Source of the DNA: an uncultured Planctomycetia bacterium
Lineage (GTDB): Bacteria > Omnitrophota > Gorgyraeia > 2-01-FULL-45-10
Direction of reading: 5' to 3'
Assembly: GCA_964352425.1 (NCBI GenBank)
Contig: CAYGRZ010000004.1
Span: 2,647-66,646 of the forward strand
DNA length: 64,000 bases
This document shows positions 5,599-64,000 of the stretch, in pieces; the stretch's first letter is position 1; each line of letters opens with the position of its first letter. The notes under the pieces were generated by a model that was not told the origin of the DNA, made no database searches, and was given only the letters and a program-made list of their open reading frames with translations. The translations under genes and the position numbers were made by a program.

Positions 5599-5611
5599 CC
5601 GCCCCGCCCCC

Positions 5612-19105: not shown

Positions 19106-19127
19106 GGCAAGGCTTCCTCTACATAAA

Positions 19128-19162
19128 GCGGATAGGCGCTTCTGTGAGATGCGCCTATCCGC
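19128..19162 (-). terminator. Perfect 12-bp GC-rich hairpin (gcggataggcgc / gcgcctatccgc, 11-nt loop) 15 nt after the stop of the CBM-only gene. It is probably a partial terminator or an mRNA-stabilising stem-loop.
   Basis: Read directly. It is followed on the minus strand by a TTTATG context and the RBS of the next gene. Confidence 0.5.
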
Positions 19163-19176
19163 TGCGATACCGGTGC

Positions 19177-21488: not shown

Positions 21489-21512
21489 GCGAGGTGCTTA
21501 TGCCCTTTTCCT

Positions 21513-22181: not shown

Positions 22182-22183
22182 TG

Positions 22184-26366: not shown

Positions 26367-27031
26367 GTCTTGTACTTCGCCAGGACGGCGTCTATCTCCT
26401 TTATCGCCTGCCTCATCGCGTCGGCGTCCTGGCCCTTCACCTGGCCCAGACATGCGCCCATCTTTGATTCGAGCGCCGCGGTAGCCGCTTTTATCCTGCC
26501 AAAATCGCTCTGGAGCGAATCGACCATCGACTCCAGCGCGCCGGCCGTGTCCTTCATCTCGTCCGATTTCCGCAGGCGGAAACTGACGCGAAGGTCGCCG
26601 CCCTGTATGGCAGCGGCCGAGCGCTCTATCCGGTACATGGGGCCGGCGATCTTATGCGAGAAGAATATGCCGGCGATGAAGATGAGGACGAAGAGTATTA
26701 TTATCTTGGGAAGGAGCGACCGGTTGACCGAATGGAGCGCGTCCTTGATCGCCGCGCGTTCCCGCTCGCTCAGGAGCTCCGCCTCCCTGAATATCCGCTC
26801 GAGGCGGTAGTCGCCCTTCTGGTACCTGGCCTGCTCGTAGTCGGCAATGCGACGCGCGGTCTCGAGGTTCTGGGAGACCTTGAACTTCGAGAAATTCTCG
26901 ATGATCGAACCCCACATGCCCAGGTACAGGCCCAGGAAGCTTGCGGCCATCACGACCACGAGCATTCCCACGATCATGAAGGTATATTTGAGCTGGAACT
27001 CTTTCTTGATGAGATAATTCCTGCGCTTCAT
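26363..27031 (-). CDS. Small membrane protein with two TM helices and a HAMP-like domain but no output domain.
   Basis: TM1 and TM2 flank an ~80-aa periplasmic segment. It carries a HAMP-like amphipathic helix pair (HKIAGPMYRIERSAAAIQGGDLRVSF...DEMKDTAGALESMVDSLQ). ATGA overlap (TGA at 26363-5, ATG at 26364-6) couples it to the GH144-like gene. Confidence 0.5.
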   Translation of the reverse strand: MKRRNYLIKKEFQLKYTFMIVGMLVVVMAASFLGLYLGMWGSIIENFSKFKVSQNLETARRIADYEQARYQKGDYRLERIFREAELLSERERAAIKDALHSVNRSLLPKIIILFVLIFIAGIFFSHKIAGPMYRIERSAAAIQGGDLRVSFRLRKSDEMKDTAGALESMVDSLQSDFGRIKAATAALESKMGACLGQVKGQDADAMRQAIKEIDAVLAKYKT

Positions 27032-53300: not shown

Positions 53301-56300
53301 TTGAGGATATCCACCTTCTGCCGTGCAATGGCAAGCTCGGCGGAGACGGCCGCAAGTCTTTCGGCGTCCGCGGCCGGCGCCGGCTTTTCGGCGACCTCTG
53401 CCGGCATCCCGGCAGCCGGCAGCGCTTCGGCCTCTTTCTTTTTCTCAAACGCCTCGCTGTCTTCCTTGGTGATGAGGTTATTGAACAGCATCTCTATCCG
53501 CATATCGATCGCGCTGATCTTCGCGATGGTATCCGCAAGGGTCATCTCGTCACGCCGCAGCCACTCTTCCTGCTCTTTAAGCTGCGTTATCCCGATCTTC
53601 CCCTCAAGATACGCCTTCCTCATGTGCGCAACGATCTTCGGCCTGTCATGATACGCTTTTTGCGCCGCCTCGAGCTCCTTCAGCGCGCCGGTCCGCTCTT
53701 TCATAAGATCGTCTAGTTGCTTCCTGAGGTCCTTTAAGGCCTGCGCTATGTCGCGCTTGAGCTGGTTGGCGGTCTCTTTAGCCTTTGCTCCTCCGCCGAA
53801 CCAGCTGAACAGCCGGAACTTGTTGAGCTTAATATTCAGATTGATGCTCCACGCCAGGTCAACCTTGTTGACGAACTTTTTGGCCGCCTGATCGTACGAT
53901 TTGTCAAATCTCGAGGCGCTCAGAGAGAGCCATATGTTCTCCCATCTTCCCATCGCCGCCTCTATCAGGGCCGCCTTCTGCCGGTTTTCCAGCTCCCTGA
54001 TATGCGGGTTATTTTTAACGATATCCGCCCATATCGCATCAAGGTCCACGGGCAGCTTCATTTCCGGTTCTTTAGTAAGGGCCGCGAGCAGTTGGTTAAC
54101 ATCTGCGGGCTTCCCTTCCTTTTCGTCCTTGCCGGCTGCGGTTATCGACGTTATGTCTCCGACCTCCTTCAGGTCGTACAGTATGCTAAGCTGCAACAAA
54201 CGGATCCTGCTCTCGGCCGCGCGCTTTATCTCTTTGGTTTTATCGATGAGCGCCTTATATTCGTCAAGGCGGGTATCGTTCAGGACGGGGTTGTGGGCAT
54301 TATACTCCTCGATCTTGCGGAGCTGGGACTCCTGCTCATTCAGCATGACCAGCAGCGATGCGACCTTCCCGCGCTCGCCGGCCAGCTGCGCGTATAATTG
54401 CTCTATCTCCATCCTCTTGTTGAATTCGACGCCTTTTCTGCTCCATACGTCCGCTTCTTTATCAAGATTTGCCTTTCTCAGGCCCCTGAAGAAGATATCA
54501 GGCTCGCTGACCGCCTTGAAGCCGTATCGCTCGGCATCCTCTGCCCGGTAATTTATCTTCCAGAGCGTCGCAGCCTCCTTTTTTTCTATCTCCTTATTCA
54601 CGTTATCTGCTCCGCCGTACTTCTCGTAGGCGGGACCAACATCTATATTGAACGTCCTCCACCACGCGCTTTGCACGTCGATATTCGCTTTATCGACCGC
54701 CGCCTGCGCAGCCGCAACCTCTTCGGATCTCTGTATCGCATCTTCCTTGACCGCCTTCCCGTCAAGCGCCGTAATCGCGTCCTTTTTGGCAAGGGCCGCT
54801 TCTACATACTTCCTGAATTTGATTATCTCTTTGGATTCGCCGTCTCTCGGCGCCGTCTGTTGTTCAAGAGCCTTGATCCTGTCGCCCGACCGCTCAAGGG
54901 CCGCCGTCACCTCCTGAAGGACGAGTTCCGCCTCTACGACCCTCTTCGAGGCATCGGCGAGTTCCGCCCGTTTCCCCGTTATGGCGGCCGGCGTCGAAAC
55001 CGTCGAGGCCTCCAGGTCGGCCAGCCCTTTTGCTATTTTGTTTTTGTGCTCTTTCGCGGCATCAAGGCCGGCCGTAGCGCTTATTACCTCGTCCCGGTCG
55101 GCCCTGTATCCATTGATCCAGCCGATAACCACCCGTTCGGCCCCGCCGATTGCCATTTGCTGGTCCTTCTTCGTCCTGGCGACATCCGGCTTGAACTTGC
55201 CTACTGTCACATTATGGAAGAACGGTATGAGGCTCGTGAACGCGCCAAAGCTCCACGTATCCTCAAGGATGTTATATTCGCCCGTCAGTGATATGTCATA
55301 CGGCTCGCCGGTCCTCGCTGCCGCCACCGCATATTCCCATGCCTCCAGGTAGCGCAGAAGCGCCATTATCGCGGCCGCGTCCGCCTCGGCCTTGTCATAC
55401 TTGCCGGCGGCCTTCAGGTCGCTGATCTCTTTGGCGATGCTTTGCAGGCTTTCGATCTCTACGGCAAGGTCCGCCCCCTCGGCCTGGAGCCTCAAGAGCT
55501 CATCCTCAGAGCTCTTTATCTGCCTGTTAACCACGTTTACTTCATCGGGGGCCACGCCTGCATACACCCCTTCTTTTTGCTGGTACTCCAGCGAGCTCTC
55601 GAGCTGTTTTTTTAATTCCTGCTCGAGCTCTATCCTGTCTCTTAACGCGGCTATCCTTTTTGTGTTCGCTTCAAGCGCCGCCCCGGCAGCCTCCTCCCTG
55701 TGCATAAGCTCATTCTTCGCGGCGACCAGCTCCCGTTCTTTCATCAGCAGGAAGGCAACCCTCTGCATGACCATGGGCTTCTTTTTGCTCGGCAATCCCT
55801 CTATCCGTATATCGAGGCCCGCGCCTATAGGCTTCGATTCCCAATCGTACACGAAATTGAGGACTTTACGGTCTTTCGGCGGAATAGCGCGCGTTTCCGG
55901 CGTAAGACGCCCTTCCGCTTCGGCCATGAACTGCTCCCGCGCATCTTTAACAGACTGCGGCAGGGGCCCTTCCTTCTGACTGGTCAAGGTTACGCTGTAT
56001 CGCATCGCGTCTTTTGCCTTAGTGCCGTAAGGAGCTGCTGAAACCGACATGCCCGGCACCATTACCGTCTTCCAGATCTTGTATTTATTATTGATCTCGT
56101 CGATGTGCGCCTGCTGTATCGCACCTGCCACCGTGATCCGCTCCAGCGCCCTTCTGTTCTGCTCGGCCCTGGCCCTGGCATCCTGGCCCTCCTTCAGCCT
56201 CTCCATATCCTGCTCGAGGGTATCGGCCGCCTGTTTCAGCCTGTCAGCATATTCTCTGGTGTTCTGGAATAAAAGCCACGTCTTCTCGGCGCCTATCTTT

Positions 56301-59300
56301 TCGCTTAAAGCGCGCAGATATGCGACCACTTCCCTGCTCATCGTGTCTATGCGTTTATCGACGATCGCGTCTATGGTTTCATCATTCAGCGCGCCTGCCG
56401 GTATAGCCGCCCTGTCAAAACCCATCTCCTCCAGCGCGCTCAGGATGTTTTCGATTGTCGCTGCGATGCGCGCGGCATCTCCCCTGCTCGAGACGGCTAT
56501 CATTTCTGCCTTCACATAATCGACCTGAGAGATGATTCCTTTGTCCGCTCTCTCCTTAGCTATCTTGGCGGAGGCGGCGGCATCGGCCTCGATCCCCTGT
56601 AAAACTTCAAGCCTGGCACGGCTTAGCGACAGCAATTTCATGAGGCGCACGCTATTCACATATCTCGCCCCCAGCTCCTCCATCAGGTCCGTCCTGGAAA
56701 GAGCCGTGTTCAGCTTCTGTATCTCTGCCGTTGAGGTGGTCGGGAATTTTATAGTAAGGCCCACCCCGAGCGGCGTCGTTGTCGTAACGGAGTATGCCTT
56801 TTCCGTGGCTGTCGCGTCAACGTCTCTGGTTGTCGTGCTGAATTTTGCGTGTAATGCCAGCCTGAAATTGCTGTTCTTATCGGCAAATATCTCATTCAAT
56901 ATGCTGCTCTGTATCCCGAATGCCTTAAGCAGCGCCCTGGCATCCCCGCCGCTTTCTTTTCCCCTTGACCGCACGGCCTTTTCTTTCAGGGCAAGAAGTT
57001 CGCTTTGCAGGGCCTGGTTCACAGCCGTCATATCGTCCGTGTCTATCGCTACGGCGTCCGCGCCGTCGTAATCACCCAGGTCCCGTATCATGGCGAGAGA
57101 CCGCTCCCGCGCTTGCCTGGCGACCTCGTAGAGCCGCTTGGCGTCTTCTTTTCTGGCCGTCAGGTCCTGTATGGGCCACGCTTTGGAAGGCCGGGCTCTC
57201 GCCTGTTTATATGCCTCCCCGAGCGCCCGGAGATTCTTCTCGTAGGCATCTTTTGCCAGCGCTTCGGCGGTCCCGGCCGCCTTGTAAATATCCATCGCCT
57301 TCCTGATGTTTAACAGGAGATCGTAACAGTAGAGATACTCTTCGAGCTCTCCGCCTTCCATGTTCTGTCTGGCGATGACCCGGCTTATATCTCTCGTGGC
57401 ATCCCATACGACCCAATCGAGCTGGGCTCCGTACGATACGAAATTCCCCGTCGCTGACGAACCTATGCCGGCGCTCAGCGTAAGCTCCGGAGCATACTGC
57501 GCCCACTTGCTCTGCTTCTTCGCCAGTATCCGCTGTATCCTTGTATTCGACCTCGTGGCCTCCGCCCGTGCCGATTCCATACCATGCCTGTACACATCTC
57601 CGAGCGTGACTTTTTTCTGAGCCTCGACAGCGCCCGTCGTAAGAAGCCCGAGCTCGCTGTTCACGGATTCTATTTCGGAATCTACGGACCTTTGCAGCTC
57701 TTTCTGCTCTCCTTCAAGGCGCAGGCTCTCGGCTTCCTTCCTCTTCAGTTCCTCTGCGGCTCTGGTACGCTTCGCGTTAAGCTCATTTTCAGAGGCCTTG
57801 ATCATGAACGCAAACTCTTTTTCGGCGGCCTCTTTGGCTGCGGCGCGCGCGGCGGCGAGATCGGGTTTCTGTCTGACTATGCCCCGTATGCCGGCCTTGA
57901 CGCGGTCGAGCATCGAGGGCGCCGGCGCGGGGATGGTTGTAGCCGGCAGTTGCACCGAAGGCTTCGGCATTGAAAGCGCGGGTGCCGTCGGTACCGGCGC
58001 TGTCGGTACCGGCGCCGGCGCTGCCTTCTCAGGCAGTATATTCTCGGGCTTTACCCCGGCAAAATCGAACTTCTGAGCGCCATAGATCTCGGCCAGGAGG
58101 CTGTATTTACCGACCGATTTTAAATACTTTTCGACATATTCCGAGTTCTTCGATCCTGCGAGCCCCAATACGAGCATTCCCTGGTCAAACGCGAGTATGG
58201 TCCTGCCCTTTGTCCCTTCTTTCGTTATGACATCGACCCATCCTTGCGGCGTCATTACACTGGGATACGCCGCCTTCAGGCTGTTGATAAGGCTGGATCC
58301 GACCCGCGGGATCACAAGGCCTGTAAGCGCGGAAGCATGAGGCGATCCTGCGCTGGTAAAGACATCCTTAGTATTATTGAATACTGCTACCGTCTCGGCT
58401 ATCGCGGGAACGCCGAATACCGGATATGTGCCGCGCTTGAGCCCGCTTGCCGTAGACAGGAGGGCCGGCAATCCCCTGACGTTAAGCGCATAATCGATGT
58501 GAATTGCAATAGTGTTGAGGTTGGCCTTCGCATAGCCTTCGGGCGATAAGGCGCTTTCGTTGATCCAGGCGTTCGGCAGCAAGGCCTGGAAGACCGTCCC
58601 GTCCCACGTATAGACGGCGTATATCTCCTCGCCCTCCCGCGTAATGTATGGAGTCTTGGTTACCGGTAATTCCATGTTAGTGAACGCCTTGACCGGTACC
58701 TGGCCGTCGCTGAACAGGATCGCCCACAGGGGTGCTATCCTGCTCTCATTGTACCTTCTGTCCAGGTGATATTCGGTTTTCAGTTTATAGCCGGCCCGCA
58801 GCAATCCGCTGCCTATTGTGGTCTTTTTGTTTCCATCATACAATGCCGCCCAACCCTTCTTCTGCGCATCTATGATCTTTTGTGCGGCCGCGGCTATATC
58901 TTTATTCTTCCCGTCATCCTGGAATCTTCCTATCAAAGCGGCCAGGGACCAGCAGAGGTTCCCGTTATCTACCGCGGACACGCCGCGCGCCTCATCCTTG
59001 ACCGCTGTGCCGTGTTTAAACTGGTACCACCAGAACAAGCCGCTGATATTTTGGCTCTTATCCGCCTGCAGTTCCTGCAGGGACCCTAAGGCTTTTCTTA
59101 TTCTGGTGAGGGCCTCGGCAGGCGTAACGCCTTCCATCTCGGCGTCGCCCGAGGCGACCAGCATCATGCAGTTCAGGTATACACCCGCATCCGTCGGGTT
59201 AAAATATTTCCCGGTACTGTCAATGGACTTCCTGCTGCTGTCCAGCAGGATGTGGTTGTACGGCAGGCCCGTAGAACTGTCTATGTTGTCCTTAAAATAC

Positions 59301-62300
59301 CTCAGGTTCTCTTTTATTGCTGCTTTTCTGCCGTTCTCTTCTATCTGTGCCGTATCAAGCGTCTTCACTTCGCTGGGAAGCTGCTCGCGCGAAGGGATCG
59401 CTGCCGCAGGCGGGGCGACTCCGGTGTGCGGCGCGGCCTCCGGCTTAGTGATCGCAACCTGCGGCGCTTGCGGCACAACGAGTTCGCTCTTCTCGAGAGC
59501 GTCAAATATGATACGTACATTTTTCCTCAGCCGCTTGAATCCGTCAAGCTCCTGAGGAGAATACTTCGATATCACTTTAAGCATGGCGGCCTGGGCTTCA
59601 TTCAGCTTTTCGCCGCGCGCCTGCGCAACCAGCGCTTCCGCTCTAAGCCTGTACTCTTCCTGCGGATACACGAGCGTCGGCGTAATGCCTGCGGATATTG
59701 CCACTGCCATGCCGAGCATCCGCGATAAGGATTGCGTAAACTCCCTTCCTGTGCGTTTTTCGATATTCATGTTATACGCGTAGATCACGCACGCCGCGAT
59801 GACCGTGACCGTAGCCGCGATCAGGTAGATGCCCAGGGCTGTGAGCGTAGCGCCCATGGCGCCGAAGAGGAAGTACGCCGAACCGCCGATCGTGAAGGCG
59901 TACATTATCACACTTCTCGAATTCGGTATAAAAGACATGAAGAACTGCCTCCAGAATCCCTGTCCCAGCTTCTCCGTCTCGCGGCCTATGCGCACGGCCA
60001 GCAGCGTCTGCATGGTGAGCATCGCTATGCCTATGATCGCTATCGGAAGCCCTATCATCCCTCCCATTATGGCGGTGGGAGTAACGACCGACAGGAGTCC
60101 GACAAGCCCGATACCTGCGGCCAGGCCCAGCACGCCTCCGGCCAGGACCGGCCATTTTGCCCTGTCGGCCTCGGCCTTCTGGGACATCGTGCTGGCACCC
60201 AGCATCACGGCCATGGACGCGCCTGCCGCGCCTTTAGCCGCGATCGAGGCGGCGATCTCGTCCGCCCCGAACTGAACCAGGAACATCACTACAACTGAAA
60301 CGGTAAGCGCCATTATAAAAGCATTGACGGCCCTGCCGAACCTGCCGGGGGCTATATCCTTTGCCTTTGACTCGAAATCTTTATTATAAATCATCGCGAG
60401 CATGATACTGGATATCAAAGCAAACAGGCTCGACCCGAATGCCAGGACGATGATGGGTATGCCGCCCAGGGCGATGCCGGGATGCGCGACCGCGATAGCG
60501 AGCGCGCCTATCGATGCCGGGATCCCCATCTGCGCCAGTACCTGCGCGACCATCATGCCGATCCATTTTATGGCGGCCACCGTGCCGCCCGTGAAGCCGC
60601 CCTTGCCTCTGCCCTGTACATATGCCATGAAGTGGTCGCTGGTCCTGTCGAGGGCCGATATCTTCAGTCCGGTCGCAAGGCGAAGCACCAGGGCCGGTAT
60701 CAGCATAGCACCTATGGAAAGGCCCGCGCCCATAAGATCGCTGTTCAACGTCGCAGTAAAAGGCGTAATAAGAGAATCTGTCAAAGGCCGTACGCCGTAA
60801 TAAGAGAATATGATGCCGACCCCCAGAATGAAAGTTATCATGGCTATCGACTTTATAAAGTTCGCCAGGAATGGGCTCAGGAAACCGGGCCTCGGAACAT
60901 CTTTGACATCCGCGACACTGCCCTTTAGAGCACCCGCCATATTATCGGCCGCGCCACGCCACAGACCATCTAAAATCGCCCTGAATTCTACCGCCACGGC
61001 ATCAAACTCCGTAAACTCTGTCGGCGGCTGGGCGAGCTGTATGCCGCGGGCGAGCTTCTGGGACAAATACCCCATCCGCTTTCTTATCTTCTGCTGACCT
61101 GTCTGGAATTTGGCGACCGCGCGTACCGCCTTCTCATTCGTGACCTGCCTGGCCGTTTCAAGCTCCACCGGATTCAGGCCGGCTTTTACCTTCTCGTATA
61201 CCGATTCCCCCTTCTCGTCTTTTCCTAACGATGCCTCAACAAGCCACTTGAATTTTTCCGGTGTGCTGGTGCCGTCTATGATATGCGCGATCCGTTTCTG
61301 TAAGTCGAAGATCTCTTTCTCTTTTTCGCGGCGCCTCTCGTCGTTCCTGTTCTCGGCGCTCACTATCATGTCCCACGCCGTGCCAACAAGCCCGCTTAAA
61401 TACGCTTTGTCCTCTGCAGAGCCTGTCGCCCTCGCTTTTCGGGCCGCATCCGCAAGCTCGTCGTATACCGACTTCAGCGTCTCTTTATTCTCCTTAAAGA
61501 CCGACTCGTCGAACGAGAAGAGGCACTCGTAGGTGCCTTCGTTTATTCCTCTGTCCGCACGCAATTTAGTCTGCGTCGCGAGGGCCCGGTATTTGTCGAG
61601 GTCAAGTGACAGGACAGCAAGCCCGGGGGCAAGCTTTCCTACTGGCGGCACCTCTACGGGGACCTGCTTACCGTCGGCAGCCGTTTCGGTCCGCTCGACA
61701 GGGTTGCCCTCAGGATCCAATACGGCTTTGCCGTCAGCGCCTTTTTCAAGATACCGTCCTTTTATACCTATATTTATAGCGCGGTGGAGTACGTTAGTGG
61801 CGATCGTGATCACATTGGCATACCCGCCCATGGCCACCGCCCTGCGCAGCTCTTCCGGATTTTCTCCGCTCGCCATGTTTATGATTATTCCGCGGGCCTC
61901 CAGCTCATTGTGCAGATTTTTCTCTATATAGTCCCTGAAGTCTTTGGCTTCCTCATCATCCCCCAGCTTTATGAGGATCGGCCGATTGTTCGCAAGCCTG
62001 TCACGAAGCTTTGCGAGAGACGCCGACCACTTCTCATCCCGCGTAGCGAAGCCCTCGTGGCCGAGATCCTTAAGCGTTATCTTCACGCCCTCGACGCGCC
62101 GCACCTCTCTTCCGAATATAGCCTTAAAGCGCGAGCCCTCCAGGGTACCGCTGGTGGCCGCAAAACCATCCGTCATCTCATTCTGGGTAAGGTACTGCAC
62201 TATGTTCTGGGCCGCCAGCGTCTCTGTCTCAGGCGAGATCTTCTCCGCTTTCAGCGCTATTTCGATAGCCTGCTGGAGCCCTTCGCCGAAATTCATCCCG

Positions 62301-63910
62301 ATCTTCTCGAACCCCGTAACCTCGTCGCGGACCGTAATCTTGCGGGTCGTTGGATCAATATACAGGTTCCGCCCGGAACCGTAGCGGACATAGAACCTGT
62401 GGGCCCTCAGGGCATCTACCGCGAACTCTTCCCACATGTCGTCTATTAACGCCGTAAGGTCGGGATATTTTGCCGTAAGCTTCCCTATCTCATCTTTGAC
62501 CCCCGGGCTCTTCAACCACGTTTCCATAAATAACGCCTGCTGCGGGTCGTCGTTGGGTTCCATAAAGGAGCTCCCGTTCTCCATCCATTTTTGCACAAGC
62601 GCATCTATCTCTTTCCGGATACGTATCCTGTCCTCGGAATCCGGGAGCGCGTCACCGGAGATTATGCAGGGCGTGGCAGACCCGAATACCAGCATGAGGT
62701 CCGCCTCATCGAACAGATCGAAATATTTGGTATTGCGCAGCGCCTTGGGCGCCCTGCCGAGCATCTCTCGTAAGTCCCTGTGGAGGAACCAATCCCATTT
62801 ACCATATATGATCGCGCATTTTTCGAATACATCTTCGATGGACGCCTTGTCTGTCACAAGCCGGCCATTCTCAAATATGACCCCCCGCTCTTCGCCGTCG
62901 GGACCGGTCAGTATGAAGCCGATGACACCGCCCTTCAACGTACCGCTCAGGATCTCGCCATAATGTTCATCTATAGCCTGCTGGACAGCGCTCTCTTCAT
63001 GGAGCATGATGATCGACTTCTTGCCCTGCTCTTCAAATTTCATAAGGCCGGCGCCTCCGAGGACGAGCGCCTTGCCGCCTCCTGCTCTCAGCTCTGTGGA
63101 CTCGCCGTCTTTCAGCGCGTTCATGGTCGGGATCTGACCTTCCCTGTAGCCTGTCCTCTTATCTGTGGGAATATTGTTTGCGTCCGCGAATCTCTCGTAT
63201 AGAACGCTTTGTAATTCTGTCAGTTTGATACCTTCCGGCGACAAGCGCATATAGCCTTTAACCGCCGGCGCTGCTGCTGGCGCCTCTTCTTTACGTGTTT
63301 CTTCGACTTTCCTTGCTTCATCCGTTATCCGCACTTCTTCCTTGCGTTTTTCCTCGGTTATCCGCGCCGCTTCCTTACGGGTCTCTTCGGCTTTGCGTGC
63401 CGCTTCGGCTATTTCTGCTTCCTCCGCGGCCTTCTTCGCGGCAGCCGCAGCTATTCGCGCTTCCTCAGCATTGCGCCGTTCCTCGGCTTTCTGCGCTATT
63501 TCTCTGGCTGCCTCTTCTGCCTTCCTTGTCTCTTCAGCTACCCGCTCTGCTTCGATCTTCTGCGCAATGACTTCCCGGGCTCTTTTGATATACGCGGCGA
63601 TACGCTCGGCCTCTTCGGGAGGCCTTTTGCTGATATTGCTAAGGAGGACGCCGAGCGCATGCTCTGCTCTCTCCTTGGTGACATTTTTATCCTCAATCGT
63701 AGCCATGGCAGCCGCGATTATATCCGGGGAAGCAACTTCTGCCGGCGGAGTGATGGCGGCCTTTTCCGTGGTAATCAACAGGGCGTTAGCAAGGTCAGAA
63801 ACTTTATTCATAAAATCTTTATAGCTATTTATTTCGGCGCTCGCTAGATAGTAGTCTTTCCCCTCCTTTATCGACTTTTGTACTATAGGGGCATTAATAA
63901 GATACGACAT
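35357..63910 (-). CDS. Giant 9517-aa composite protein (28,554-nt ORF). In order it contains a coiled coil, a SecA-like motor, 3 TM clusters, a GH144-like domain, TolC/OEP-like repeats, a YD-like beta-repeat region, an HExxH motif, a radical-SAM domain with SPASM/twitch extension and a PtsI-like PEP-utilising module.
   Basis: Single uninterrupted frame. I counted the residues in full and the count matches 9517. I verified an anchor: the CxxxCxxC motif at residues 7641-7648 maps exactly to nt 40967-40990. An in-frame stop lies 5 codons upstream of the ATG at 63910. Domain calls come from motif-level reading and are listed as separate features. Confidence 0.9.
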   Translation of the reverse strand: MSYLINAPIVQKSIKEGKDYYLASAEINSYKDFMNKVSDLANALLITTEKAAITPPAEVASPDIIAAAMATIEDKNVTKERAEHALGVLLSNISKRPPEEAERIAAYIKRAREVIAQKIEAERVAEETRKAEEAAREIAQKAEERRNAEEARIAAAAAKKAAEEAEIAEAARKAEETRKEAARITEEKRKEEVRITDEARKVEETRKEEAPAAAPAVKGYMRLSPEGIKLTELQSVLYERFADANNIPTDKRTGYREGQIPTMNALKDGESTELRAGGGKALVLGGAGLMKFEEQGKKSIIMLHEESAVQQAIDEHYGEILSGTLKGGVIGFILTGPDGEERGVIFENGRLVTDKASIEDVFEKCAIIYGKWDWFLHRDLREMLGRAPKALRNTKYFDLFDEADLMLVFGSATPCIISGDALPDSEDRIRIRKEIDALVQKWMENGSSFMEPNDDPQQALFMETWLKSPGVKDEIGKLTAKYPDLTALIDDMWEEFAVDALRAHRFYVRYGSGRNLYIDPTTRKITVRDEVTGFEKIGMNFGEGLQQAIEIALKAEKISPETETLAAQNIVQYLTQNEMTDGFAATSGTLEGSRFKAIFGREVRRVEGVKITLKDLGHEGFATRDEKWSASLAKLRDRLANNRPILIKLGDDEEAKDFRDYIEKNLHNELEARGIIINMASGENPEELRRAVAMGGYANVITIATNVLHRAINIGIKGRYLEKGADGKAVLDPEGNPVERTETAADGKQVPVEVPPVGKLAPGLAVLSLDLDKYRALATQTKLRADRGINEGTYECLFSFDESVFKENKETLKSVYDELADAARKARATGSAEDKAYLSGLVGTAWDMIVSAENRNDERRREKEKEIFDLQKRIAHIIDGTSTPEKFKWLVEASLGKDEKGESVYEKVKAGLNPVELETARQVTNEKAVRAVAKFQTGQQKIRKRMGYLSQKLARGIQLAQPPTEFTEFDAVAVEFRAILDGLWRGAADNMAGALKGSVADVKDVPRPGFLSPFLANFIKSIAMITFILGVGIIFSYYGVRPLTDSLITPFTATLNSDLMGAGLSIGAMLIPALVLRLATGLKISALDRTSDHFMAYVQGRGKGGFTGGTVAAIKWIGMMVAQVLAQMGIPASIGALAIAVAHPGIALGGIPIIVLAFGSSLFALISSIMLAMIYNKDFESKAKDIAPGRFGRAVNAFIMALTVSVVVMFLVQFGADEIAASIAAKGAAGASMAVMLGASTMSQKAEADRAKWPVLAGGVLGLAAGIGLVGLLSVVTPTAIMGGMIGLPIAIIGIAMLTMQTLLAVRIGRETEKLGQGFWRQFFMSFIPNSRSVIMYAFTIGGSAYFLFGAMGATLTALGIYLIAATVTVIAACVIYAYNMNIEKRTGREFTQSLSRMLGMAVAISAGITPTLVYPQEEYRLRAEALVAQARGEKLNEAQAAMLKVISKYSPQELDGFKRLRKNVRIIFDALEKSELVVPQAPQVAITKPEAAPHTGVAPPAAAIPSREQLPSEVKTLDTAQIEENGRKAAIKENLRYFKDNIDSSTGLPYNHILLDSSRKSIDSTGKYFNPTDAGVYLNCMMLVASGDAEMEGVTPAEALTRIRKALGSLQELQADKSQNISGLFWWYQFKHGTAVKDEARGVSAVDNGNLCWSLAALIGRFQDDGKNKDIAAAAQKIIDAQKKGWAALYDGNKKTTIGSGLLRAGYKLKTEYHLDRRYNESRIAPLWAILFSDGQVPVKAFTNMELPVTKTPYITREGEEIYAVYTWDGTVFQALLPNAWINESALSPEGYAKANLNTIAIHIDYALNVRGLPALLSTASGLKRGTYPVFGVPAIAETVAVFNNTKDVFTSAGSPHASALTGLVIPRVGSSLINSLKAAYPSVMTPQGWVDVITKEGTKGRTILAFDQGMLVLGLAGSKNSEYVEKYLKSVGKYSLLAEIYGAQKFDFAGVKPENILPEKAAPAPVPTAPVPTAPALSMPKPSVQLPATTIPAPAPSMLDRVKAGIRGIVRQKPDLAAARAAAKEAAEKEFAFMIKASENELNAKRTRAAEELKRKEAESLRLEGEQKELQRSVDSEIESVNSELGLLTTGAVEAQKKVTLGDVYRHGMESARAEATRSNTRIQRILAKKQSKWAQYAPELTLSAGIGSSATGNFVSYGAQLDWVVWDATRDISRVIARQNMEGGELEEYLYCYDLLLNIRKAMDIYKAAGTAEALAKDAYEKNLRALGEAYKQARARPSKAWPIQDLTARKEDAKRLYEVARQARERSLAMIRDLGDYDGADAVAIDTDDMTAVNQALQSELLALKEKAVRSRGKESGGDARALLKAFGIQSSILNEIFADKNSNFRLALHAKFSTTTRDVDATATEKAYSVTTTTPLGVGLTIKFPTTSTAEIQKLNTALSRTDLMEELGARYVNSVRLMKLLSLSRARLEVLQGIEADAAASAKIAKERADKGIISQVDYVKAEMIAVSSRGDAARIAATIENILSALEEMGFDRAAIPAGALNDETIDAIVDKRIDTMSREVVAYLRALSEKIGAEKTWLLFQNTREYADRLKQAADTLEQDMERLKEGQDARARAEQNRRALERITVAGAIQQAHIDEINNKYKIWKTVMVPGMSVSAAPYGTKAKDAMRYSVTLTSQKEGPLPQSVKDAREQFMAEAEGRLTPETRAIPPKDRKVLNFVYDWESKPIGAGLDIRIEGLPSKKKPMVMQRVAFLLMKERELVAAKNELMHREEAAGAALEANTKRIAALRDRIELEQELKKQLESSLEYQQKEGVYAGVAPDEVNVVNRQIKSSEDELLRLQAEGADLAVEIESLQSIAKEISDLKAAGKYDKAEADAAAIMALLRYLEAWEYAVAAARTGEPYDISLTGEYNILEDTWSFGAFTSLIPFFHNVTVGKFKPDVARTKKDQQMAIGGAERVVIGWINGYRADRDEVISATAGLDAAKEHKNKIAKGLADLEASTVSTPAAITGKRAELADASKRVVEAELVLQEVTAALERSGDRIKALEQQTAPRDGESKEIIKFRKYVEAALAKKDAITALDGKAVKEDAIQRSEEVAAAQAAVDKANIDVQSAWWRTFNIDVGPAYEKYGGADNVNKEIEKKEAATLWKINYRAEDAERYGFKAVSEPDIFFRGLRKANLDKEADVWSRKGVEFNKRMEIEQLYAQLAGERGKVASLLVMLNEQESQLRKIEEYNAHNPVLNDTRLDEYKALIDKTKEIKRAAESRIRLLQLSILYDLKEVGDITSITAAGKDEKEGKPADVNQLLAALTKEPEMKLPVDLDAIWADIVKNNPHIRELENRQKAALIEAAMGRWENIWLSLSASRFDKSYDQAAKKFVNKVDLAWSINLNIKLNKFRLFSWFGGGAKAKETANQLKRDIAQALKDLRKQLDDLMKERTGALKELEAAQKAYHDRPKIVAHMRKAYLEGKIGITQLKEQEEWLRRDEMTLADTIAKISAIDMRIEMLFNNLITKEDSEAFEKKKEAEALPAAGMPAEVAEKPAPAADAERLAAVSAELAIARQKVDILKGRMKELDGDAARIKSRIAPDMNLAKALEKGENNLYRKKIENAVSAEARKAVNSDEVSKIMGALGIKEKQAVSVANMLYRYGIAHKLNPADKDFGEFVEDLAYFSDVLKGEMAKIPKLPSFFEDHLKPLSWEDDLSYAKIGLPAYYARRVAFLMAENPGMTRAQARDRIMAKEAREDLENIGLYNRFDADLANKLEPSRQYLAWEDAVTRRLDRAEWAKLSTDERIDAANRSRDIAQLIHGRAVYEQGDALDSGVLGAVAALPIRNDWTGAQLAKNVELMNAIAPFIKGFYNLNEEAVLKMPEGARLMVLKLMGKRETPAYRQELAKVTDTILMGKTMWWTQFASDRDLSASQVERVLTILANVSKTIEPYIHLITGSEEEREGLRLAITIDVLINKNTWVGRFLNSDGLAPADEQKDNIRLLFTKAYPAAKNFKNLAGYSDAVMFGKHMAMARDFVELLGKEVIEESDTTLMDDIIAYRNEVNRLILDKPIAANQAEKELFVAIKIKQKEAAFGAALPEEEKKLIRDRAEEEFADIYRDGYLSSVADPFIVDDNYRRLSGIRKPVPLKDIAVKLNLRELVSDLADKRVVAISRKGTDFEMVRDHEVDKKIKELEKKADRYGVALDPRTVSSYMEAFRKDFYLVHRQGVINSRVDNFYDEGVTDAATIEKRLSAEFIVDALAKHHWRPLNGEEVANWAQVLLNFIYVSPAEKDLPDDEKYKILTGRMADPADLSIWQDNVKQMLAVTGNYTGTVGKAIRDITNVYTLIYFEQNGYIAAVDSIKKRLKQVEGMDDKKTFNDLFIALEKAGVLDGKIQKLRKSVKDPKFIAWEALRGSIEKVAKANDVYQQERFTKEKPAKLRQILSDIKELTDAYRSDPKMRGMAEFNLIRELEELAADLRDNDADIEEFAKEEPLESSFIKADSLLKKFDEVRKKAANARKEELKLRERLRDAVADREKALGEKLRLAEKAASPFAKEWFFPRMRQRIKNIFSPVSTQREEWEGLVKAVYNARLFYSLDTYREKVKDTLATSGAQIMYKKMQALAAKQGKEPADLMKEKMAEAKGELVNAVYLKAISRASGQEIEIGELGFLQAAIRFGNYLQDAKEKYLSQPRFKNLSQPERKETGDWFIRNKIAKYIRFEALIKREEEAMVKNQTDPNGVPRLSYGQITGTFMELDEAGKGEERETARIRRDFYDASLIQEWANNSPLGYYLGQKMLRNTIREMAQSETGVMTQRDKMQRRINIEFQSQRQYYTNLGPSIEEERNDLFNDQDQFSDIDIQRYNEHMEQLKAITETRPGYMRKARAEAIEKLGSFHKQITYMLLKTQDVPGEKIAGDVKSLDSMIFPDIIRNINLKLSERNKEWTIANKQQIDKWIDLREPVKDERQGKISAYKTRTADKALKDQDLAAIREDIEAVLPGINEQLPPEKRIDPADENSIWDIQRQIYLSGMTASDYLTKTFVHPLEVRELLKNIYSKSKLTPPMEKKLKYYVTQIDMDGWPIDYIRVQLLYGIYLKGEMEKLGVTLNEDALEILVSHMIYNGIMPVPMKAPGTDYYEVFGRRADTLTVEDLQGMDLPVSRTIKMVKEMTDKLASEKYTLDKKTREDLFYIIGLSLNTNIIEPPEAEIVDIEADKIQKIVASQFEDGRIELGKFEKDRDSIIREISQKLKARNIHPANFVKLVNRLIEVKEANAAISQSIKDPTMLGRLEKIRIERGDLEILAVLDKDGFDKDKVIGIMELKALGIKTGSPREKLLIQDVKAPMDVTWNDFQNDRLLSLHETLKNYLDDNVFKGKDPLSDVKLSLEAQEKIEGMSRRDREKMTARIKDRIISRGLVKIDYVKEGKGDTAIIRPRAVRAFSADQDARLQKVIRSIIEMELGKIAPEPKHKLIAGLTYMLISILSIMGFYKIALYRHRREIRKNKKILYGPNANVPAPGTAPAAPTPPVAGAKPAAAPKDTSGQAGAVTIEALMGLFRAMVFISKLVLTGLTLYHFNDITHFTVLGTYSSWLFILLAPVLVWWNYFIDKATKPPIRPVIKWAVPLAVFSCIYISGIPGLNYTLMALASGILVYITISAAVDFGRDTLKLAATAITGRGNQRELTHTFFARLAKLAITTAATSVTAIYALSTINADTSLLGIIAVAAVLYTYCNYCMAELFVAIGTLTVANGALFLGNMVGLFKERAPWDLPKYKLVEKTQRIAKKYKAVIYDIGRQEGPLDVKLIAKTLFDSMINSVKMERVGADKAKYLYEDSAGNKFVPDEQDNLGAWMHSDTALKEAGLIMEEIAQILNARRLWGRDKVTYAHRNFQKHVYNPTHMMKPGSYRSDFEWMLECWTHPHLYVTRLDDDRPKITVAEDASGTLRQGILAEPGTYTIDGVTGEAIVYSDTSKTTEVKRFPRGTYTRSPVYDEENEGFELVTDFAVELLKGEYAIERRTIKIDDREWQVSAESEVYYIDADNPARRYRLLKGDIYDDATGKLIATKDMYDELPKSGLLRDRNDSTQRAKGKDGQELPDRVATIYDQHIYLKDKSGAIRHTLILTKDGKLLDAATGAYFASIDEIGHIDQGVAYKKYILGADGKITPAVNEYGGEYLLTRAAEFDGQRPIIPENLETFIDTLDANGVITERGGAFVKTRAKEGEWKRDPETGNAVTITGDVLVPVGWWSADADGNLIVDEGLKALAGSWHVEKATGDAIHTASGRILAKYGTWKKDLKGDLYAGGITKQEAKLYAREGAITDFFELGLGKTGRETTYFIADRAHSLTRDAGGMLIADTSALRLREVEDGYLANEKDGFVIKGGELLQYPMDGSVSRYDKEPLRRWDLAKDGITSVVQDNIILDQKTEALKQSQRLARYGTFAKDNNGIYRTRRLLAQYDDVYFDGYGNAHLKTTDGELAASGEFVLDEDNNLRRIAVDAGDPVINMNGTFGAGEVAVDEKTGDLIVERTLQQKDGFDIDEEGWAIDNGKNRIARVGTYILVKRDAGYVYAKDMLGNEVEPDIYIQLPIEIDNKNEVISGVAKRIGSRAAYDILGKELWGMYQPQIQYPNIGKSLFARLQSWAQSMLSYISLVFFWIFGKGSAVGKMTFYGPKYLNDVIKKQVLPWTVRSHDFWEAMWTATAYLVGTLLAPIYILEETVTSFSSMIIRMRRWVPGDVEALRREWNAAKAMFAYAQGHGIEAMIAAKKQIRESVLGSANVNLESEHHISGIIRGMLSTPVFTIWLVVLGLIATQIPAVLTGTHPVTARDLFAIVMLILIGQKGSPILRETFERGPRSLKTWANVAGGLASVALLVALPKIIIAAPALAVWAAVVVLLIVILRNPVKKLISVGMKWTEIPVKIGMPAGLVAMFWAATPYIELCLRSVPSAAYLTEDLLKHNFGICAYTIIYVGIATLAGMLQHAMARAASGPALFVKDFFGMVNKVYLTTKRLAVETFLHTSIMMMNLIYGPLDLKKSTKAVIQGREFRWDTLTAVEARLEKGMTVWQAYKEFKWAPIAGITLLVLVLVGVFFPSDYFLFRIFDPAFVFKGFPIFILSWVFGPYAAWYTAKYGGTREHRTQPFQFMIHELNAWMKETGTVMGKAALSDGAAIQKIKELTKNETIYNKDRHALRLYILYLTELDLAGTDKQDLRNEVADAMKMMDLSEIELQHKKIKAWTETEWKGAWDQLNEFARVRVLNEIVKRQKGGLLAGQVDAVKLERINRIMEVLEAAGPRRFFEKYWPDLDIAKRQAVVTKSGATGLERLLDLPAPAAAPAAPAALAPSPIAMKAGVLGGRHDLAWATIIDGQVENYKGIDNGMKAALEALLQRVITLHDLSESAREKVEELLEMGSGDAAAIKRKALMKEKSIRIVEGNDRLMHFTEGADSITLDVDSLAANNELLFMEFIHELMHARLRSMPTNAPPLSPMEEEMYITSKEVELFLAFPQKTQDNILSALKNSDDLDDFKFHKVLQYARDYGISRSSTYLEDYIHSLYEPVGNLARRLKDARVDITQDNKALELAMEALKADGIEVRDRLRIPLLRLLRELLLYPYSSSHEVMKKTGLDIGDLKELYKIVKSSQFMQEMLAMESPNATFIKIARLLMEDEDYVRKILNGEPVYPKIVELHLGLKCPSNCIFCYSQGRDYADRQGKPAIDKERLFALIDDFAANGVRDIYFSGGREPFTNKDSVDVVQYAAGKGLNVYIYTEGTFLDTARAQEVVTHAKQIRVSFNAATPETYEAVYRRPGSDVEWIKSNIRGMVEIKRKTKSDVSIGVSFLAMSQNYKELYMAIKLAHLMGADFFDIRADIIGKIGDFSEEEMKGLLKMIFKIRKMQRLGEFGNMRIDIAERFNVLAGGLVKSAKPVKMPRDCWATLTKIVINPWGEVYRCCLTAQPTFEDRIFQIGDLSTGGKRLHDILVGTTRARKDFDIHKCPSCNVYENNVNLLLEKLNNDLDVGVDINEQSFIPAEAVTAAAPLKDRVSRVVERFTKRSKSLSATTKMMLLAGIGTLASIAFGHEISSMNIAAAGMMLGMVTAGQEGAVGAPPEGATAPYISRAVGEDVVGEATGREGIEKAMLDRAREERDVYEVFKETLPDELRGLEPMPVDFVQKCLTEMFTENHVVDPKNKSKLYNEIFELWQLYLLARKTKEAGQTATHVALNDLKRVTSHDVPVTQVLIATPNRIGADKEFVTMVGDRGIERARTLDLIYDGVYIELLQLQKSPAVAEELSAETAAELLGRANAVNLEGAKALSDKAYGLCYEKLRGIHKCATNGVPGGVWNGIILNYVEDSLTLDGLKSGYKVGDRVKHIRTSPADEMTHLISRIRPQVYRVEKDLKTATGEMAEVFKAMIALYDHILENVRVENGSDSAAAQVRKACEMLLKVPVFARPDTKSRIIRVIKAVDEGYVISEDGVEAEQGKYFACHTAAMAEMSPSTTAAQVAERMFRGVSETIKTARHTAHFALWQWLEANYPVDAQGKRSDEGRLAEEIVKNICLKLDIEEVRLEDIDEVAERARQEKREIVVVSAGLIEDELILRALTEKYKVKAFVSSGGSTSQHAALVATARGATLLLGPPKIVLAKLAHTNASCSFYVSEAGFEAYFYAGPATSDQGAAMAVKVARAKALKDYYLSKQSKEPDEVVRTLDGVETPVYANINVGYNLEKGEFGIEDEGALGALRTAYSSGANGNALARTEFMYGRSQAPDAAHQERLYMGLANLANKTVTIRTFDKQDDKACPALPDTERLAGVNGKPYSFDYYRTKTGREALKTQITAILRAQMLSDYHNLRMMFPMVKTMDDIVFISDLLKEIKTEQFMDELAAQHHKMFRSARKEKAEVVRLLDEMPIGIMVEHRDLVMDKAGNLTFENLMLILDNGLVPIRFLSIGSNDMTASVKEKDRSGITAHDYDKQILGIIEGVVKEAAQRGLPVTICGDAARYHKTLMFSLYLQKKYNIFMIPGVIYGMIPELKTVAGQCSAAACGDLLENWQAKTDDEINKIVRNKTQVVVERIENEPEFIAEFTARMGQSTTTTTTPRLVEAGSFILLGIFVYLALPPWMVLAIGAAAAAAYVIWKQLDRMRPAPVTVNERYITDQAVKTALMMESAREPSGEGYVGDLIHRLEETVEMKEPAEGLPLPKPAKVSAAAFIIGLAGASAETVEAVGRAYGTGTRVVSVTGEEELRKMASEGSPARILLDGTMPVSQITSAEFKQDIASIRLARAYDVIFAMAGIDDATRQEIAEAIKAMLPGTEKMDWDNLLDAASMAAAKDPALRQRLHDTVTSIVEKRRDELATKTKAYRPMELPDASSLKSLMARSAVKKFAMATTEKMAMSNIRFGKGMNRAEALGKQAGGEVVNCFIYGDIYKTEEAARSFIAASGYTGNVNDIKLINKKDRSYADIRADVVDAAGLDEKSMGNIGITAEASELGKPTSAGEKVLVAEEIEMNGVKVVPAINSYEALFLMVTGAVAEGQLPPGVTKNGDIYNFMPPILPLNYGTELRAYWDGIALIRSSA
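36941..38353 (-). other. PtsI (PTS Enzyme I) / PEP-utilising-enzyme-like module: phosphohistidine swivel domain plus PEP-binding TIM barrel (residues ~8520-8990).
   Basis: Colinear matches to E. coli PtsI as I recall it:
- KAFVSSGGSTSQHAALVATARGATLLLG vs [27 protein letters not shown] (His shifted by one position);
- ALARTEFMYGR vs GLYRTEFLFMDR;
- VTIRTFD vs VIVRTMD;
- LRMMFPMVKTMDDI vs LRIMFPMIISVEEV;
- IGIMVEHR vs IGVMVETP;
- FLSIGSNDMTA vs FFSIGTNDLTQ;
- TICGD vs GMCGE. Confidence 0.65.
40061..41038 (-). other. Radical-SAM domain with a SPASM/twitch-like C-terminal extension (residues ~7625-7950).
   Basis: CPSNCIFC (CxxxCxxC) at nt 40967-40990, verified on DNA. A glycine-rich SAM-binding segment IYFSGGREPF follows. 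Downstream lie CWATLTKIVINPWGEVYRCC (C-x13-G-x4-CC) and CPSC. Confidence 0.75.
41648..41662 (-). other. HExxH zincin-like motif (HELMH, residues 7417-7421) in a helical region upstream of the radical-SAM domain.
   Basis: Local context LFMEFIHELMHARLRS. The motif alone is weak evidence for a metalloprotease. Confidence 0.25.
42641..44143 (-). other. Transmembrane cluster 3 (about 10-12 helices, residues ~6590-7090).
   Basis: Helices such as SYISLVFFWIFG, TIWLVVLGLIATQIPAVL, LAVWAAVVVLLIVIL, ITLLVLVLVGVFF and PIFILSWVFGPYAAW. Confidence 0.55.
44231..46273 (-). other. Beta-hairpin repeat region (residues ~5880-6560) with recurring xDxxTGxxI / YDxxG units (YD/RHS-like, low confidence).
   Basis: Units such as DIYDDATGKLIATKDMYDE, TKDGKLLDAATGAYFASIDEIG, YDDVYFDGYGNAHLKTTDGELAASGEF and DEKTGDLIVERT. 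Confidence 0.35.
46751..47638 (-). other. Transmembrane cluster 2 (residues ~5425-5720), containing a Pro/Ala-rich linker (APGTAPAAPTPPVAGAKPAAAP).
   Basis: Hydrophobic helices, e.g. LIAGLTYMLISILSIMGFYKIAL and WLFILLAPVLVWWNYFI. Confidence 0.55.
53411..57763 (-). other. Region containing several TolC/outer-membrane-efflux-protein (OEP)-like repeats (beta-strand pairs followed by long helices), residues ~2050-3500. It is preceded by a Pro-rich linker (PAPVPTAPVPTAPA).
   Basis: Pattern matches to the OEP family: LSAGIGSSATGNFVSYGAQLDWVVWDATRDISRV..., ARLEVLQGIEADAAASAKIAKERADKGIISQVDYVKAEMIAVSSRGDAARIAATIENILS, and DLAWSINLNIKLNKFRLFSWFGGGAKAKE...LEGKIGITQLKEQEEWLRRDEMTLADTIAKISAI. Confidence 0.45.
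58061..59353 (-). other. GH144/DUF3131-like (alpha/alpha)6 domain (residues ~1520-1950), paralogous to the three standalone hydrolase-like proteins of this window.
   Basis: STGLPYNHILLDSS...GVYLNCMMLVASGD matches NGLIKDSS...VAAVGFGLAAICVG. GLFWWYQFKHG...VSAVDNGNLCWSLAALIG matches GFLYHFLDMRTG...VSSIDTALFIAGALYAGE. YTWDGTVFQALLPNAWIN matches CYTGSLFTYQYSHAFID. Confidence 0.5.
59651..60883 (-). other. Transmembrane cluster 1 (about 10 hydrophobic helices, residues ~1010-1420).
   Basis: Repeated 20-25-residue Ala/Gly/Ile/Leu-rich stretches (e.g. MITFILGVGIIFSYYGV, GIPIIVLAFGSSLFALISSIMLAMIY). Confidence 0.6.
61481..63148 (-). other. SecA-like preprotein-translocase motor module (NBD1, preprotein-binding domain and NBD2; residues ~255-810) with degenerate catalytic motifs.
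   Basis: Colinear matches to SecA from my memory of its sequence:
- ELRAGGGKALVLGG vs EMRTGEGKTLTATLP (Walker A: GK kept, T replaced by A);
- AIIYGKWDWFLHRDLRE vs DITYGTNNEYGFDYLRDN;
- LFDEADLMLVFGSATPCIISG vs [21 protein letters not shown];
- ALRAH identical;
- GLQQAIE vs GLHQAVE;
- VITIATNVLHRAINIG vs VTIATNMAGRGTDI (motif VI);
- LRADRGINEGTYECLFSFDE vs [22 protein letters not shown]. Confidence 0.65.
63281..63628 (-). other. N-terminal Lys/Glu/Ala-rich coiled-coil segment with degenerate tandem repeats (residues ~95-210).
   Basis: The protein repeats (RKAEETRKEAARITEE / KRKEEVRITDEARKVEETRKEEA). A matching ~24-36-nt periodicity (cttcc...gcg units) is visible in the DNA. Confidence 0.6.
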
Positions 63911-64000
63911 ATTAGCTGCGAGCGATTTTAATAGCTTTATGACTATTTCTCTATCTTCGGCCGGTATCGTTCTAAGCTCTTTAAATTGTAAAGAAAGATT

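Follow-up and report, generated by a model that had tools for sequence, protein, structure and literature searches.

A divergent SecA-like motor with a degenerate ATPase site belongs to a conserved membrane cassette of a giant Omnitrophota protein

We know of no established mechanism by which bacterial proteins tens of thousands of residues long are made, inserted and exported, and the SecA-like module embedded in some of these giants, so far described at the level of Pfam domains, is the only obvious clue to the machinery of their biogenesis. What such a module is, and what it may do, is the question raised by a 64,000-nucleotide stretch (hereafter the window) of contig CAYGRZ010000004.1 (assembly GCA_964352425.1, positions 2,647 to 66,646), from an uncultured Planctomycetia bacterium placed by GTDB in the Omnitrophota. 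An initial annotation of the window had recognised a SecA paralogue with a degenerate Walker A motif at 61481-63148, which corresponds to residues 255-810 of a giant open reading frame (ORF), and had proposed three roles for it: a device docking the protein to SecYEG, a self-export mechanism or a pseudo-ATPase scaffold. Our analysis indicates that the module is a SecA homologue, that it travels with a specific membrane domain, and that in this copy several residues of the ATPase site have been substituted.

To NCBIfam, the motor gave significant matches confined to SecA and SecA2 models, with no further family. PRK12904 (SecA) aligns at its positions 87-577 of 814 with residues 263-806 (E=7e-21, 74.1 bits), followed by TIGR00963 (3e-19, 68.7 bits) and the SecA2 model TIGR03714 (2e-11, 43.2 bits). 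SecA families were also the only ones matched by the window copy in Pfam, with P-loop_SecA (4e-5) and SecA_DEAD (2.5e-3), these PF07517 and PF21090 matches being slightly below the gathering score. A phmmer search of all PDB sequences returned SecA and SecA2 alone (E=4e-17), and the alignment, over E. coli residues 162-577, spans the preprotein-binding domain (PPXD), as in FAVDALRAH...VRDEVTG...GEGLQQAIE against VTAALRAH...IVDEHTG...SDGLHQAVE. A profile of the window copy and three relatives again retrieved only SecA and SecA2 from the PDB (1e-32), including the isolated PPXD construct 5k94 (1.5e-5), and three of the four family members tested match Pfam SecA_PP_bind (PF01043), the best at 1.2e-8. 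Residues 225-1010 were modelled with AlphaFold2 (mean predicted local distance difference test, pLDDT, 75; predicted template modelling score 0.69; nucleotide-binding domains, NBDs, 85-95) from a 21-sequence alignment that took in canonical SecAs. The top 36 PDB matches of the motor model in Foldseek were all SecA or SecA2 (3e-21 to 1e-10), and the first non-SecA match was DinG (1e-9).

These results establish that residues ~255-810 are a genuine, highly divergent SecA homologue in which NBD1, PPXD and NBD2 are colinear, and that the SecA-specific elements (the TPxIISG stem, the PPXD and a SecA-type NBD2) are present. The colinear alignment of about 550 residues claimed by the initial annotation is borne out both by the PRK12904 positions and by the phmmer alignment. 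The two comparisons that it had proposed, with SecA family hidden Markov models (HMMs) and of an AlphaFold model with SecA, lead to the same family, and the likeness is not limited to RecA-fold helicase motifs, since the alignment spans the PPXD and is specific to SecA and SecA2.

The homology has clear boundaries. Nothing aligns past SecA profile position 577, where neither a wing domain nor a C-terminal tail was detected, and the N-terminal ~85 residues of SecA are unmatched by the profile as well. Only ~200 helical residues separate NBD2 from the first transmembrane (TM) helix. For this region hhalign chose the two-helix finger region, MDYLRQGIHLRGY, at E=0.27, so that homology to the helical scaffold domain and its finger is suggestive at most and not significant; in the AlphaFold2 model a later helix hairpin follows the post-NBD2 helix at a pLDDT of 32-68. 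Two formal assignments were considered and rejected: membership of canonical SecA, with 74.1 bits against a cutoff of 814 (PRK12904), 68.7 against 800 (TIGR00963) and domains missing, and membership of accessory SecA2, with 43.2 bits against 930 (TIGR03714).

Comparison of the whole giant protein with all fetched relatives by BLAST revealed one single high-scoring segment, residues ~224-1505, with ~29-37% identity over 1250-1400 residues; the remainder of the protein shows almost no conservation among them. The motor is the front half of a conserved cassette of ~1300 residues, consisting of the motor, a helical linker of ~130 residues and a ten-helix membrane domain. About 20 relatives share this cassette, all of them in very long ORFs. 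In each of the 13 relatives whose length allows a judgement, Walker A is followed by the TM cluster after 700-870 residues. In the window copy the spacing is 735 residues, from Walker A at residue 276 to the first TM helix at 1011.

The membrane domain carries conserved motifs of its own (VYLRQ.YGKKI..LDRS, RW.G.M.LQLLAGPG, ESF[IV]P[NS]SRN..MY and YSVNIEK..GR). Family-averaged hydropathy resolves TM1, TM2 and four hydrophobic blocks of ~35-52 residues, which we read as hairpins. The long loops are all rich in Lys and Arg (mean 3.8-6.5 K+R), and the sole resolved short loop is poor in them (0.8). Since the long loops are K/R-rich, the positive-inside rule suggests ten helices with both termini in the cytoplasm, and a domain that would return the chain to the cytoplasm makes simple export of everything downstream unlikely. 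Searches for the identity of this domain gave noise: its profile matched no SecY in the PDB at E <=10, Pfam gave noise only, and a word-index search for homologues of the TM alignment came back empty, without even the members of the alignment, probably because it was swamped by hydrophobic words. The AlphaFold model of the domain (mean pLDDT 54.7; best Foldseek match at E=0.14, TM-scores ~0.12) is too poor for a fold search.

The giant ORF runs on the minus strand as a single open frame, 9517 codons from the ATG at 63910, over 28.5 kb without frameshifts or stops. Its 9517 residues are a lower bound, as the frame is still open at window position 64000: the 30 codons upstream of the ATG (63911-64000) contain neither an in-frame stop nor an alternative start, and a promoter scan 5' of the ATG gave one 9/12 match, which is at chance level. 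Because no stop lies between the ATG and the window edge, both this length and the placement of the motor at the N-terminus are provisional, and the initial annotation went too far in stating the latter. An exact match of the protein places it on an NCBI contig of 76,619 bp, and short Logan contigs with the sequence come from runs ERR3804373 and ERR3804374. The annotation was right that a SecA paralogue lies inside a giant membrane protein, which has at least 9517 residues and ~25 hydrophobic segments. Residues ~95-215, on the 5' side of the motor, are ~120 residues of near-repeats (EEARK, AEETRK) that resemble a charged single helix or spacer.

The relatives define the family to which the motor belongs. 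A word-index search retrieved four partial proteins from Omnitrophica metagenome-assembled genomes (MAGs) at 39-42% identity (E=1e-109 to 2e-47), and canonical SecAs at only ~25% identity (E of at least 5e-13). An exhaustive profile search, which covered 1.84 billion representatives, found ~14 proteins at E <=1e-133, a looser shell (P0040-P0044) at 5e-73 to 1e-47, and canonical SecAs from ~1e-35. Overall, the closest relatives are 37-42% identical, are partial or giant ORFs and come from Omnitrophota MAGs; canonical SecAs are ~20-25% identical. Scanning GTDB genomes yielded five loci (L001-L005), four in Omnitrophota MAGs and one in a bin labelled Planctomycetia, none of them close, and a family-pattern scan of JGI metagenomes added two more (L008 and L009), in which the signatures of Walker A, motif V and motif VI are preserved. 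At four of the five GTDB loci the frame exceeds the fetched DNA (at least 5542, 7172, 3367 and 5740 residues), with Walker A placed between 689 and more than 3200 residues into the open frame; at L002 it fills a 2.7-kb contig (at least 907 residues). Judged by scores and identity, the motor family is discrete, separate from housekeeping SecA and mostly confined to Omnitrophota. We also inspected the N-terminal regions of P0003 and P0004, and in one relative an HExxH-like string, LVHEAVHHKKG, occurs several hundred residues upstream of the motor, which hints at a metalloprotease-like element 5' of the cassette.

Motif states were taken from an alignment of all members to the family HMM. Every motif string quoted in the initial annotation is present in the translation: ELRAGGGKAL (273-282), FDEADL (400-405), TPCIISG (413-419), ALRAH (500-504), VITIATNVLHRAINI (700-714), QTKLRADRG (780-788) and LFSFDES (797-803). 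The DNA of the P-loop reads ACA GAG CTG AGA GCA GGA GGC GGC AAG GCG CTC, which confirms at codon level (GCA GGA GGC GGC AAG GCG) the degenerate Walker A with Ala in place of Thr/Ser, and both Ala codons are a single transition away from a Thr codon. In the family, Walker A reads ELRTGGGK[T/S] against ELRAGGGKA in the window copy, the only other exception in the tight family being P0039 (GKP). Motif III is (A)SGT in the family and TSGT here, with P0031 (ATGT) and P0039 (AIGT) as exceptions; motif V is HRG[IV]D[IV] against HRAINI (exception P0032, HRGVNI), and motif VI is Q.xGR[AG]DRG against QTKLRADRG (exception P0038, G→K). Walker B, FDEADL, is the same in both, and differs at its third position in L001, P0031, P0037 and P0038 (DETD, DEID, DEGD). 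About 20 members keep GGGK[T/S], HRG[IV]D[IV] and Q..GR..R; GKA, HRAINI and QTKLR occur together in the window copy alone. Specific to it are two changes in the P-loop (both Thr→Ala), two in motif V (G→A and D→N) and one in motif VI (G→L), and the P-loop Ser/Thr is kept in all canonical SecAs sampled.

The degeneracy of the ATPase motifs is accordingly confirmed for this copy, with the family consensus intact, and two details of the initial annotation have to be corrected. The change from GRGTDI to HRAINI is real, but it had been labelled motif VI; GRGTDI is helicase motif V in the nomenclature of superfamily 2 (SF2), motif VI being QLRGRSGR, here QTKLRADR. The string DEAD in place of DEVD is likewise present without being a peculiarity: since DEAD and the His of motif V occur across the family, both are family traits. 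In a leave-one-out comparison the window copy deviates at 12 of 76 positions invariant in the other members and keeps 64, and the counts for other long-branch members are 13 of 77 (P0037) and 15 of 79 (P0038). Its identity to the family consensus (0.477) falls in the lowest tier, and it is one of three long-branch members. The window copy is a divergent member whose substitutions fall on catalytic residues, and in overall decay it is no unique outlier.

Among more distant SecA-like modules, P0046 and P0064 carry GGGKG and DESD, P0043 has lost the Arg of motif V and P0062 has lost motif V entirely. Several, not all, of the degenerate modules (these four and P0039) belong to ORFs that are several thousand residues long. 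In this wider group, catalytic residues seem to have been lost repeatedly.

In P-loop NTPases the Ser or Thr after the Lys is a Mg2+ ligand, whose loss as a rule impairs hydrolysis more severely than binding. As this ligand is lost in the window copy, we lean towards impaired hydrolysis, and the reading that we favour, with moderate confidence, is that the module binds nucleotide, is impaired in hydrolysis and serves, tethered to the membrane, as a clamp, dock or scaffold and not as a processive motor. Because the ATPase motifs of the family are intact, the cassette in general would most likely be an ATP-driven clamp that moves polypeptide at the membrane. The motor would face the cytoplasm, and its own TM domain, in place of the wing, tail and lipid-binding N-terminus of SecA, would tether it to the membrane; it might insert or thread stretches of the giant protein or of its partners, via the attached TM domain or at SecYEG. 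In the window copy it would bind nucleotide, hydrolyse it poorly and act as a clamp, dock or scaffold; the SecYEG dock, self-export and the pseudo-ATPase scaffold are not separable with sequence tools. Several points weigh against our reading. The Walker A Lys, the Asp and Glu of Walker B, the Arg of motif V and the Gln and both Arg of motif VI are all retained. The deviation count is similar to those of P0037 and P0038, so that part of the motif decay may be general divergence, and the expected effect of Thr→Ala comes from general knowledge of P-loop NTPases, not from SecA-like proteins. The single-sequence JGI metagenome scan returned no relative close enough to show conservation of GKA. The PPXD of the window copy gave no PF01043 match in the Pfam search, and its bulb is modelled with a pLDDT from below 50 to 75. 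Finally, since no search or model gave a fold for the TM domain, a channel role is speculative.

The retained residues, together with the DEAD box and the SGT of motif III, could also belong to a fully active motor, in which ATP hydrolysis despite the substitutions drives self-export or insertion of the giant protein, a role that has been suggested for the family, Mg2+ being held via water or by the acidic residues of DEAD. The intact ORF, the preserved non-catalytic signature of the family (TPCIISG, GEGLQQAIE, FSFDE, NRNDERRRE) and an overall divergence comparable to that of other long-branch members also speak for activity, but the P-loop Ser/Thr is kept in every other member of the tight family except P0039, and three separate motifs are altered in one copy, so that we regard this alternative as rather unlikely. 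That the motor is a functionless, drifting vestige, with the TM domain or the downstream enzymatic domains alone of importance, appears improbable: the lowest-tier consensus identity, the 12 deviations at otherwise invariant positions and a PPXD too divergent for PF01043 would fit, yet the frame has no frameshifts or stops, the copy still shares ~40% identity over 650 residues with relatives whose mutual identity is no higher, 64 of the 76 invariant positions are kept and the NBD cores are confident in the AlphaFold model. A generic SF2/DEAD-box nucleic-acid helicase, like SecA in its RecA-fold motifs only, is a very improbable source of the module, even if DEAD and HRGIDI resemble DEAD-box motifs II and V and relatives give weak Pfam DEAD (2e-6) and ResIII (8e-5) matches. 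We discarded this candidate on the grounds that all significant sequence matches are to SecA or SecA2 and that the PPXD is covered; moreover, the family profile matches the isolated PPXD construct, relatives match PF01043 at 1e-8, and SecA is ahead of the best helicase by ~12 orders of magnitude in Foldseek E-value. Finally, we found no canonical secA within the 64-kb window, which would agree with the module being the housekeeping SecA of the organism fused to a giant protein; this is almost certainly wrong, given the 74 bits against an equivalog cutoff of 814, the missing wing and C-terminal tail, the degenerate P-loop and the fact that complete Omnitrophota genomes with such giants encode a normal SecA and SecYEG (10.1101/2023.11.21.568195).

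The cassette is of wider interest because it gives a defined construct, a motor invariably accompanied by one particular ten-helix membrane domain. The family also offers a natural comparison, as most members have a competent ATPase site and some, the window copy most clearly, lack key residues. Should the degenerate copies prove able to work with no hydrolysis, SecA would be a further motor that has given rise to pseudo-enzymes. A TM domain that proved to be a conduit would represent a new type of translocon. A more far-reaching proposal, which we consider unlikely, is that the ~1300-residue cassette is a self-contained, SecYEG-independent fused translocon, a SecA-derived motor with its own ten-helix conduit through which Omnitrophota would thread or insert segments of giant proteins, ATPase-dead copies such as this one being locked clamps or plugs; if true, it would be a motor-channel fusion of Sec origin, the first of its kind.

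Table 1. Positions in the window of the giant ORF, of the parts of its motor and cassette, and of neighbouring genes.
Feature	Position	Strand	Remarks
Giant ORF	35357..63910	minus	at least 9517 codons
Charged low-complexity stretch rich in Glu/Ala/Lys/Arg, residues ~95-215	63266..63628	minus	5' of motor; without counterpart in relatives
Whole conserved cassette, residues ~224-1500	59411..63241	minus	single colinear segment in BLAST against every relative
SecA-like motor module, residues 225-879 (NBD1, PPXD, NBD2, first long helix)	61274..63238	minus	profiles, phmmer, Foldseek
NBD1, residues 255-419	62654..63148	minus	alignment; Q-motif-like YREGQ 255-259, SecA-specific TPCIISG 413-419
Walker A, degenerate, LRAGGGKAL, residues 274-282	63065..63091	minus	Lys kept; both Thr of family RTGGGKT are Ala
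Walker B, FDEADL, residues 400-405	62696..62713	minus	intact, family-typical
PPXD-equivalent insertion, residues ~420-560	62231..62653	minus	divergent; ALRAH 500-504, GEGLQQAIE 542-550
Motif III, TSGT, residues 586-589	slightly upstream of the NBD2 stretch 61466..62143	minus	
NBD2, residues ~590-815, with motifs V and VI	61466..62143	minus	alignment, model
Motif V, TIATNVLHRAINI, residues 702-714	61769..61807	minus	Arg kept; G→A, D→N against family HRGIDI
Motif VI, QTKLRADRG, residues 780-788	61547..61573	minus	Gln and both Arg kept; G→L against family QTxGRADRG
Predicted 49-residue helix after NBD2, residues ~832-880	61271..61417	minus	conserved NRNDERRRE; pLDDT ~65; position of SecA scaffold helix
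Helical linker, residues 881-1010	60881..61270	minus	family-conserved FQTGQQ..R.R..YL; helix hairpin (935-1010) predicted with low confidence
Polytopic membrane domain, residues ~1011-1400, ~ten TM helices as five hairpins	59711..60880	minus	hydropathy, family alignment
GH94 protein, 2080 residues	8696-14938	minus	
Three PF10091 glucoamylase-like proteins	6633-8699, 16814-19330, 25089-26453	minus	
CBM11-like protein	within 4717-26453	minus	
Sugar ABC transporter	two permeases 4717-6556; binding protein 22184-23509	minus	
Two-component system	20016-22406	minus	histidine kinase and response regulator
ROK protein; M48 peptidase	downstream of giant gene	minus	

Outside the cassette, the giant protein (minus strand) has an OEP/TolC-like outer-membrane efflux match at residues ~3290-3475 (53486-54043), which is sub-threshold (20.9 bits against a cutoff of 22), radical SAM and SPASM domains at ~7640-7945 (40076-40993; 3.5e-10 and 2.8e-3) and a PEP-binding domain of PEP-utilising enzymes at ~8686-8950 (37061-37855; 1.2e-21). 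The radical SAM/SPASM and PEP domains are cytoplasmic-type enzymes situated between TM clusters of the giant protein, and further clusters lie at residues ~5426-5709, 6749-7041 and 9042-9067. Directly downstream of the giant gene there is a second very long ORF of 2656 residues (27147-35117, minus strand), whose sole Pfam matches are phosphoglucomutase/phosphomannomutase domains I-II at residues ~1773-2053, and then a glucan-type carbohydrate locus (4717-26453, minus strand). All sizeable genes identified across the 64 kb are on the minus strand. Most 2-kb bins have a negative GC skew, among them all those from 26 kb onwards.

A SecA module in a megaprotein, for which the initial annotation had called each of its three proposed roles unusual, has precedents, as West-Roberts et al. 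describe the arrangement (10.1101/2023.11.21.568195). In most giant Omnitrophota proteins of that study, the SecA DEAD and preprotein-binding domains are divergent, lack wing and scaffold and adjoin TM regions, which may anchor them, and the modules form a long-branched clade apart from housekeeping SecA in genomes that also encode SecYEG and a normal SecA (10.1101/2023.11.21.568195). The authors suggest that the modules may serve self-export of the giant protein, and report that carbohydrate import genes often neighbour the giants and that Radical_SAM and PPDK are among their frequent domains; their text does not analyse Walker or other ATPase motifs (10.1101/2023.11.21.568195). In a 2026 preprint, 20 of 916 long Omnitrophota proteins make up a PF07517 architecture cluster (10.64898/2026.06.07.730766), and a full-text literature search retrieved no further paper on SecA-like modules of giant proteins. 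The window protein agrees with the West-Roberts giants in having a divergent SecA motor that contains a PPXD but no wing or tail, placed beside TM helices in a very long multi-TM ORF, and in its Omnitrophota relatives, its radical SAM and PEP/PPDK-type domains and the carbohydrate-import genes nearby; its ORF, of at least 9.5 thousand residues, is below the focus of that study on proteins of more than 30 thousand. The architecture had therefore been described in preprints, in which motor, linker and ten-TM unit are not defined as one cassette. What is new here is this definition, together with a motif comparison at family level that includes a copy with a degenerate ATPase site.

Compared with canonical SecA (2fsf, 1m6n, 3din), the motor shares the colinear order NBD1-PPXD-NBD2, the TPxIISG, ALRAH, GLxQAxE, TIATN..R and Q..R..R signatures and, in the window model, a long helix after NBD2. 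It differs in having no wing, C-terminal linker or zinc finger, with at most a suggestive match (E=0.27) to the two-helix finger, and in carrying AGGGKA and HRAINI instead of GxxGxGK[T/S] and GRGTD. Canonical SecA is moreover a free-standing soluble protein of ~800-1000 residues, whereas the window motor is one part of a giant protein and is covalently joined to a membrane domain. Accessory SecA2 (TIGR03714; 6sxh, 4uaq) offers a parallel in one respect, being a second, specialised SecA paralogue beside the housekeeping SecA, and some SecA2 proteins, such as that of M. tuberculosis, have no wing domain. SecA2 is nevertheless a free-standing soluble ATPase with intact motifs that handles particular substrates in Gram-positives and mycobacteria, whereas the module described here is fused to TM helices.

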